Shown piece after piece: positions 2-667 of a stretch of DNA of 698 nt. The position numbers and the translations under genes were made by a program. Position 1 is the first letter of the stretch. Each line of letters starts with the position of its first letter. Under the pieces are notes generated by a model, which was given only the letters and a program-made list of their open reading frames with translations, searched no databases and was not told where the DNA came from. Where the stretch lies: assembly GCF_003334785.1 (NCBI RefSeq), contig NZ_QOWV01000075.1; one strand, given 5' to 3'. Origin of the DNA: Escherichia coli (lineage in GTDB: Bacteria > Pseudomonadota > Gammaproteobacteria > Enterobacterales > Enterobacteriaceae).

Positions 2-667
2 CACCCGGAGCAACACCTCCGCCCCTTCCGGGGTATCCTGCAGGCGGATGCGTTCACAGGTTACGACAGGTTGTTCAGTGCAGAACGTGAAGGTGGTGCA
101 CTGACAGAAGTTGCGTGCTGGGCCCATGCCCGGCGAAAAATCCACGATGTATACATCAGCAGCAAAAGTGCGACGGCAGAAGAAGCCCTGAAGCGAATCA
201 GTGAACTGTACGCCATCGAGGATGAAATACGGGGATTACCGGAGTCAGAGCGTCTTGCCGTCAGGCAGCAGCGAAGCAAAGTGTTACTGACGTCGCTGCA
301 TGAATGGATGGTGGAGAAGAATGGTACGCTGTCGAAAAAATCCAGACTGGGCGAAGCGTTCAGCTATGTACTGAATCAGTGGGATGCCCTCTGTTATTAC
401 AGTGATGACGGTCTGGCGGAGGCGGATAATAATGCTGCGGAAAGAGCGCTTCGTGCAGTCTGTCTCGGAAAGAAAAACTTTATGTTCTTTGGCAGCGATC
501 ACGGCGGCGAGCGTGGAGCACTGTTGTACGGGCTGATCGGCACCTGCCGTCTGAACGGTATCGATCCGGAAGCGTATCTGCGCCATATCCTGAGCGTACT
601 GCCGGAATGGCCTTCCAACCGAGTTGATGAACTCCTGCCATGGAACGTAGTACTCACCAATAAATAA
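2..667 (+). CDS. IS66-family transposase (TnpC/Orf3-like), C-terminal ~221 aa; 5'-partial, true start lies upstream of the window
   Basis: The frame of nt 2 has no stop from 2 to 664 and ends at TAA 665-667. Translating 2-70 gives HPEQHLRPFRGILQADAFTGYDR, which runs straight into the track ORF 71..667. Recognised IS66 transposase motifs are GILQADAFTGYD, ACWAHARRK (nt 113-139), DNNAAERALR and the C-terminal tail GIDPEAYLRHILSVLPEWP...LLPWN. The track's start at 71 is a TTG inside the longer open frame, with no convincing Shine-Dalgarno at the right spacing, so it is not the real start. Confidence 0.9.
   Translation, partial: HPEQHLRPFRGILQADAFTGYDRLFSAEREGGALTEVACWAHARRKIHDVYISSKSATAEEALKRISELYAIEDEIRGLPESERLAVRQQRSKVLLTSLHEWMVEKNGTLSKKSRLGEAFSYVLNQWDALCYYSDDGLAEADNNAAERALRAVCLGKKNFMFFGSDHGGERGALLYGLIGTCRLNGIDPEAYLRHILSVLPEWPSNRVDELLPWNVVLTNK

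Follow-up and report, generated by a model that had tools for sequence, protein, structure and literature searches.

The locus raises the question of whether the undamaged transposase reading frame in this stretch of Escherichia coli DNA belongs to a live insertion sequence (IS) or to the remnant of one. The whole stretch analysed, 698 nucleotides (nt) long, is called the window below, and positions refer to its plus strand unless stated otherwise. Nucleotides 2-697 are the 3'-terminal 696 bp of ISEc23, a member of the IS66 family, with 100% identity (696/696 bases) to the copies of that name in RefSeq. Judged by its sequence, the window is ISEc23, already named in ISfinder and RefSeq, observed thousands of times, and nothing in the fragment departs from the known element. 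When the window was used as a megablast query, ISEc23 and its relatives were matched in 4,605 of 5,426 complete E. coli genomes; many of these copies are 100% identical over nt 2-698 and carry the annotation 'IS66-like element ISEc23 family transposase', and most of the matching genome sites are full-length ISEc23 genes. The same pattern was obtained with 72,556 plasmids of PLSDB, the matches coming mainly from Escherichia, Klebsiella, Shigella and Salmonella. Compared with an intact ISEc23 copy of E. coli G5, the window shows a single difference, at nt 1, which is T in the window and A in the intact element.

Frame +2 of the window is the 3' part of tnpC (nt 2-667). It consists of 221 sense codons (nt 2-664), encoding TnpC residues 317-537, and a TAA stop codon at nt 665-667. 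Translation bears out the initial annotation, in which the 221 residues were described as free of frameshifts and internal stops, and the 221 codons hold zero substitutions relative to intact ISEc23 copies. Because no decay is visible in these codons, the coding sequence alone cannot separate a live copy from a dead one. The tnpC part in the window is without a start codon, a ribosome-binding context and the N-terminal 316 residues. Antisense open reading frames (ORFs), such as a 100-aa one at nt 284-586 on the minus strand, were set aside as alternative genes, because nothing supports them, while the evidence that places the plus-strand frame in a family is overwhelming.

This family support comes from profile matches, conserved motifs and alignment. 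The translated frame matches Pfam DDE_Tnp_IS66 (PF03050) with E=3.3e-52 over model positions 118-283 of 284, and the NCBIfam equivalog NF033517 ('IS66 family transposase') with 221.6 bits, above the cut-off of 180 bits, over profile positions 195-385 of 387. Both matches are C-terminal only because the window begins at residue 317. The IS66 C-terminal domain DDE_Tnp_IS66_C (PF13817) lies at nt 533-643 (window residues 178-214) and is matched with E=2.3e-16 over model positions 2-39 of 39. Thus the IS66 DDE domain and the IS66 C-terminal domain expected by the initial annotation were both recovered, and its description of the window as the C-terminal part of an IS66-family DDE transposase with intact motifs agrees with PF03050, PF13817, NF033517 and the alignments described below. 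The motif ACWAHARRK is found exactly where it had been placed, at nt 113-139, with C355 at nt 116-118, H358 at nt 125-127 and R361 at nt 134-136. The DNNAAERALR block is likewise present; it occupies nt 425-454, with the E463 codon at nt 440-442, and had been located one codon off, at nt 422-451. The name 'CwAH-rR' for the first motif reportedly goes back to the ISfinder/Gourbeyre et al. 2010 description. The motif string was not found in a literature search, and its conservation is shown by alignment instead. Literature searches on the DDE residues and leucine zipper of IS66 TnpC returned nothing, and those on IS679 and ISEc23 returned survey papers only; in one paper (PMC8369957), IS66 is mentioned descriptively only.

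To assign catalytic residues, the plasmid tblastn and protein-homologue searches were uninformative, as they gave only close relatives (at least 50% identity). Distant relatives, with 21-60% identity, were taken from a tblastn search of phage records and included ISEc8, ISCro1-like, Pseudomonas, Leptospira, Streptococcus and human-gut contig sequences. In alignments of 13 and 20 IS66-family proteins (21-83% identity overall), D268, D332 and E463 are invariant (13/13 and 20/20). Twelve of the 13 sequences retain C355, H358 and R361, a degraded Streptococcus copy being the exception, and all three residues are invariant in the larger alignment (20/20); R360, N459, N460 and R467 are each at least 90% conserved among the 20 sequences. 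Alignment with ISEc8 and other IS66-family proteins, which the initial annotation had proposed as a check, thus assigned the DDE residues to D268, D332 and E463. According to this conservation and the predicted fold, the three residues would constitute the catalytic triad of ISEc23 TnpC.

The full-length TnpC of the G5 copy was modelled with AlphaFold2 on the basis of the 20-sequence alignment (mean pLDDT 85.4). The model shows an RNase H-like order of elements, with predicted strands 1-3 at residues 264-275 (with D268), 282-292 and 304-310, followed by a helix at 316-321 and strand 4 at 328-331, directly after which D332 is located. Then come a further helix, strand 5 at 351-353, a helix at 356-370 that opens with the CwAH-rR motif, a predicted all-helical insertion domain at about 373-450, and a helix at 460-466 bearing E463. 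Searched by sequence with full-length TnpC, the PDB yielded neither a meaningful match nor an IS66-family structure. When the predicted structure was compared with the PDB by Foldseek, the DDE transposase of ISCth4 (6xgx, 6xg8) was the only significant match (E=2e-7, probability 1.0). In terms of this model, the window begins after strand 3 of the RNase H-like core, strands 1-3 all lying upstream of residue 317. The window holds two of the three triad residues, E463 and D332 (codon at nt 47-49, within LQADAFTGY, placed by alignment and predicted fold); D268 lies 49 residues upstream of the first window codon. The full DDE triad is therefore not in the window.

What should stand upstream can be read from the intact ISEc23 copy of E. 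coli G5 (locus L002, 2165-4696), which is 2,532 bp long and encodes tnpA, tnpB and a TnpC of 537 residues. It starts with GTAAGCGTAAAC... at the 5' side, ends with ...GTTGACGCTTAC at the 3' side, and is bounded by an 8-bp target duplication, CATCTTGA. Full-length TnpC relatives bear PF13005 (zinc finger) and PF13007 (leucine zipper). In intact IS66-family elements, the DDE transposase TnpC acts on both GTAAGCG... ends, giving rise to an 8-bp duplication. The tnpA and tnpB genes are also required for transposition, as IS679 genetics is said to have shown. Judging from established knowledge of DDE transposases, the TnpC of intact ISEc23 would bind the two GTAAGCG... ends and carry out transposition by cutting and integration, duplicating 8 bp of the target, with tnpA and tnpB as accessory genes. 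Some database proteins of 644-664 residues (P0001, P0003 and P0108) carry PF05717 (IS66 Orf2/TnpB) and the TnpC domains in one chain, and these annotated TnpB-TnpC fusions, which share 64-100% identity with ISEc23 TnpC, may result from gene-calling errors or from genuine read-through or frameshifting.

Among the 5,426 complete genomes and 72,556 plasmids, all 698 bases of the window are matched by one record only, plasmid pWP7-S17-ESBL-04_2 of E. coli WP7-S17-ESBL-04 (NZ_AP022179.1); among the matches listed, every other one begins at nt 2. In this plasmid the ISEc23 sequence is cut exactly at window nt 2, and RefSeq/PGAP annotates the gene as a pseudogene ('incomplete; partial in the middle of a contig; missing N-terminus'). 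The sequence upstream (L001 5895-6003) is the terminal 109 bp of the right end of ISEc38, an element of the ISL3 family, holding on the opposite strand the terminal repeat GGCTCTTCCGCAACC... and the last transposase codons. In a three-way alignment, the plasmid follows ISEc38 up to ...GCATCTTCA and ISEc23 from CACCCGG, the CA at nt 2-3 being common to both elements. The T at nt 1, a flanking base that does not belong to ISEc23, is in this record the last unique base of the ISEc38 remnant, and the junction carries a 2-bp CA microhomology. At the fragment in pWP7-S17-ESBL-04_2, neither tnpA, tnpB, the left repeat and the tnpC start nor the leucine zipper, the zinc finger and D268 are found upstream. 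The gene order tnpA-tnpB-tnpC is missing, and its place is taken by the ISEc38 remnant and a fimbrial chaperone gene. D268 is accordingly deleted in the sole record that matches the entire window. The initial annotation had suggested that this copy may encode a functional transposase C-terminus, with the N-terminal half simply lying outside the window. The N-terminal half is indeed outside, but in NZ_AP022179.1 it is absent altogether, so that the upstream part of the gene is defective there in the strongest form. The suggestion of a functional product is unsupported, as the sole full match is a pseudogene truncated at nt 2.

These observations make it very probable that the window is a 5'-truncated, non-functional remnant of ISEc23, and a truncated context is the most likely origin of the window. 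Alternatively, the window could come from the 3' side of a complete ISEc23 that is capable of transposition and has an A-to-T single-nucleotide polymorphism at nt 1. The two readings differ in what precedes nt 1, namely ...CTGGCGTTTCAGCATCT of the ISEc38 remnant versus ...CCGGCAGGGGAA of intact ISEc23. On its left side the window has one non-ISEc23 base only, and an intact ISEc23 with such a third-position change (K316N) gives the same 698 bases. A single mismatched base is thin evidence; moreover, nt 2-698 are 100% identical to intact copies, and full-length ISEc23 genes account for most of the E. coli genome matches. However, no intact ISEc23 with T at nt 1 was seen among the matches listed from the 5,426 genomes and the 72,556 PLSDB plasmids, where intact copies align from nt 2. 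In addition, the mismatch at nt 1 sits exactly at the breakpoint found in two related plasmids and is the very base that they carry there. The extent of the window points the same way, because its 698 bases take in the entire ISEc23-homologous block and only one further base at each end, the right edge stopping just one base past the IS end, as for a remnant taken with one flanking base at either side. On these three grounds truncation is favoured, and an intact element with K316N is considered improbable, with perhaps one chance in eight or so left to it.

The second of the two plasmids is NZ_CP069544.1 (FDAARGOS_1248 unnamed2), in which the left junction is identical and a complete ISEc22 is inserted in the ISEc23 fragment after window nt 645. 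Since both ISEc38 and ISEc23 are broken internally at this junction, it is to be regarded as the scar of a deletion or illegitimate recombination and not of an insertion. We propose that a deletion joined ISEc23 position 1837 to the interior of the ISEc38 remnant through the 2-bp CA microhomology. Such an event would account for the loss of the left end, of tnpA and tnpB, and of the beginning of tnpC with TnpC residues 1-316. The remnant, perfect in sequence, would make no active transposase, and with a single end it would not be mobilisable, even by a transposase supplied in trans. It may persist as neutral DNA and as a patch of homology for recombination with other IS66-family copies. ISEc23 and ISEc38, which are fused in the remnant, are also neighbours elsewhere: in E. 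coli M8 (L016 1-3623), the end of an intact ISEc23 tnpC lies about 700 bp from a complete ISEc38.

On the right, the first base past the IS end (nt 698) is, in pWP7-S17-ESBL-04_2, the first base of a 3' remnant of an ISEc8-like tnpC (98% identity to ISEc8), which is followed by a recombinase remnant and eatA. Among complete genomes, this right junction occurs in pWP7-S17-ESBL-04_2 only. Relatives of the IS66 family are nested at the locus, as the right end of ISEc23 adjoins the interior of the ISEc8-like tnpC (L001 6699-7245) and, in the sister plasmid, ISEc22 lies inside the fragment (L003 about 6726-9200). The stacking of three IS66 relatives within 3 kb may be due to preferential insertion into related transposase genes, or the locus may just be a hot spot for IS. 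More broadly, the fragment has on one side a fimbrial operon of the CD15/CS22/SEF14 family that includes AraC and ANR regulators, and on the other eatA, which encodes a serine-protease autotransporter (L001 1-12698); pWP7-S17-ESBL-04_2 is an ETEC-type virulence plasmid, and the fragment lies in an IS scrap-heap on it. The host strain is from Tokyo, Japan, and its name carries 'ESBL'. The ISEc38 terminal repeat also truncates the beginning of a short ORF, ATGAATAAAACACTTGCAATACTG... (MNKTLAILLFSVSFSAYADINLY, resembling a signal peptide), at L001 5828-5894; located just upstream of the CS22/SEF14-type chaperone-usher operon, this ORF is probably a disrupted gene of that region.

The right end of the element is preserved in the window. 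The right terminal inverted repeat (IRR), identified by comparison with the left repeat in the intact G5 copy, spans nt 674-697, is 24 bp long and ends in ...CGCTTAC. When reverse-complemented (GTAAGCGTCAACGGAGCACCGTAT), it agrees with the left repeat in 20 of its 24 positions, the terminal GTAAGCGT included. The left repeat itself is outside the window and missing in the pWP7-S17-ESBL-04_2 context. Nucleotides 665-696 hold a perfect inverted repeat of 10 bp (TAAGCGTCAA / TTGACGCTTA), whose arms at nt 665-674 and 687-696 are separated by a 12-nt spacer. When single-stranded it forms a strong hairpin, folding at -17 kcal/mol (z=-6.3), and none of 200 shuffled sequences folds as well (0/200). 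The outer arm is the IRR tip, and the inner arm overlaps the region of the tnpC stop codon. The palindrome is a real feature of the ISEc23 end, and the hairpin could serve as a 3' stabiliser of the transcript, or it could sequester or duplicate the tip to which the transposase binds. No obvious equivalent hairpin was noticed when the adjoining ISEc8-like end (L001 about 7205-7245) was read by eye. An Rfam scan of the window gave a sub-threshold chance match only and no known RNA element, and the single weak direct repeat, a 20-nt pair with 75% identity, was taken as chance.

An open, undecayed frame next to an intact right repeat also invites the idea that the truncated gene is expressed, for instance as a 198-aa product started at the TTG of nt 71 or through upstream read-through, and that the resulting TnpC fragment acts in trans as a dominant-negative product or as an end-binding competitor of IS66-family transposases. 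Inhibition by shortened forms of a transposase is established elsewhere among IS families, Tn5 Inh being an example, and intact ISEc23 coexists with ISEc8 and ISEc22 relatives in the same genomes. However, the fragment lacks an ATG and a ribosome-binding context, PGAP calls it a pseudogene, and no promoter-like site precedes it in its context, the counts staying within those of shuffled sequences; when the window and its surroundings were scanned for promoters and terminators, neither was enriched over shuffles. The TTG at nt 71 opens the longest in-frame ORF with a start codon, and its product would lack D332 as well. The predicted fold is also unfavourable, for the encoded polypeptide would begin only after strand 3, part-way through the RNase H-like core, and would be unlikely to fold properly. 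Furthermore, the interruption by ISEc22 in NZ_CP069544.1 has broken the fragment further, which argues against selection to keep it. We regard expression of an acting fragment as highly implausible, and equally little credence is due to the idea that the C-terminal fragment (helical insertion domain, E463 helix and IS66 C-terminal domain) and the intact right repeat together regulate the several live IS66-family elements of the cell, by a decoy or dominant-negative effect. The preferred reading is still that of an inert, truncated remnant.

For this remnant the significance hardly goes beyond annotation hygiene, since truncated IS fragments are routine in the IS clusters of virulence plasmids. 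The lesson, one of method, is that function should not be read from conserved motifs and an undamaged frame when only part of a gene lies in view. In this case, a single mismatched edge base, read together with its database context, points to the loss of the first Asp of the triad, half of the catalytic fold, the accessory genes and one end of the element. The mapping of the putative IS66 DDE triad (D268, D332, E463) and the fold match to ISCth4 are small by-products which may help annotators.

Among known systems, the closest is ISEc23 itself (e.g. WP_001697975.1), to which the window is 100% identical in TnpC codons 317-537, the stop codon and the right inverted repeat; the difference lies in nt 1 and in the first 1,836 bp of the element (left repeat, tnpA, tnpB and tnpC codons 1-316), which are absent in the context of the sole full-length match. 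In the case of ISCth4, an element of the IS256 family, the predicted full-length TnpC shares an RNase H-like DDE core with a TM score of about 0.5 on the target, whereas the sequence identity is 13-14%, the IS family is another one, and the window encodes only the part of the core after strand 3. ISEc8, ISEc22, ISKox1, ISKpn24 and ISCro1 are distinct IS species by nucleotide sequence, but their intact copies share with ISEc23 the three-gene architecture and the GTAAGCG terminus, and their TnpC proteins, 50-83% identical, carry the same D/D/E, CwAH-rR and DNN-AER blocks.
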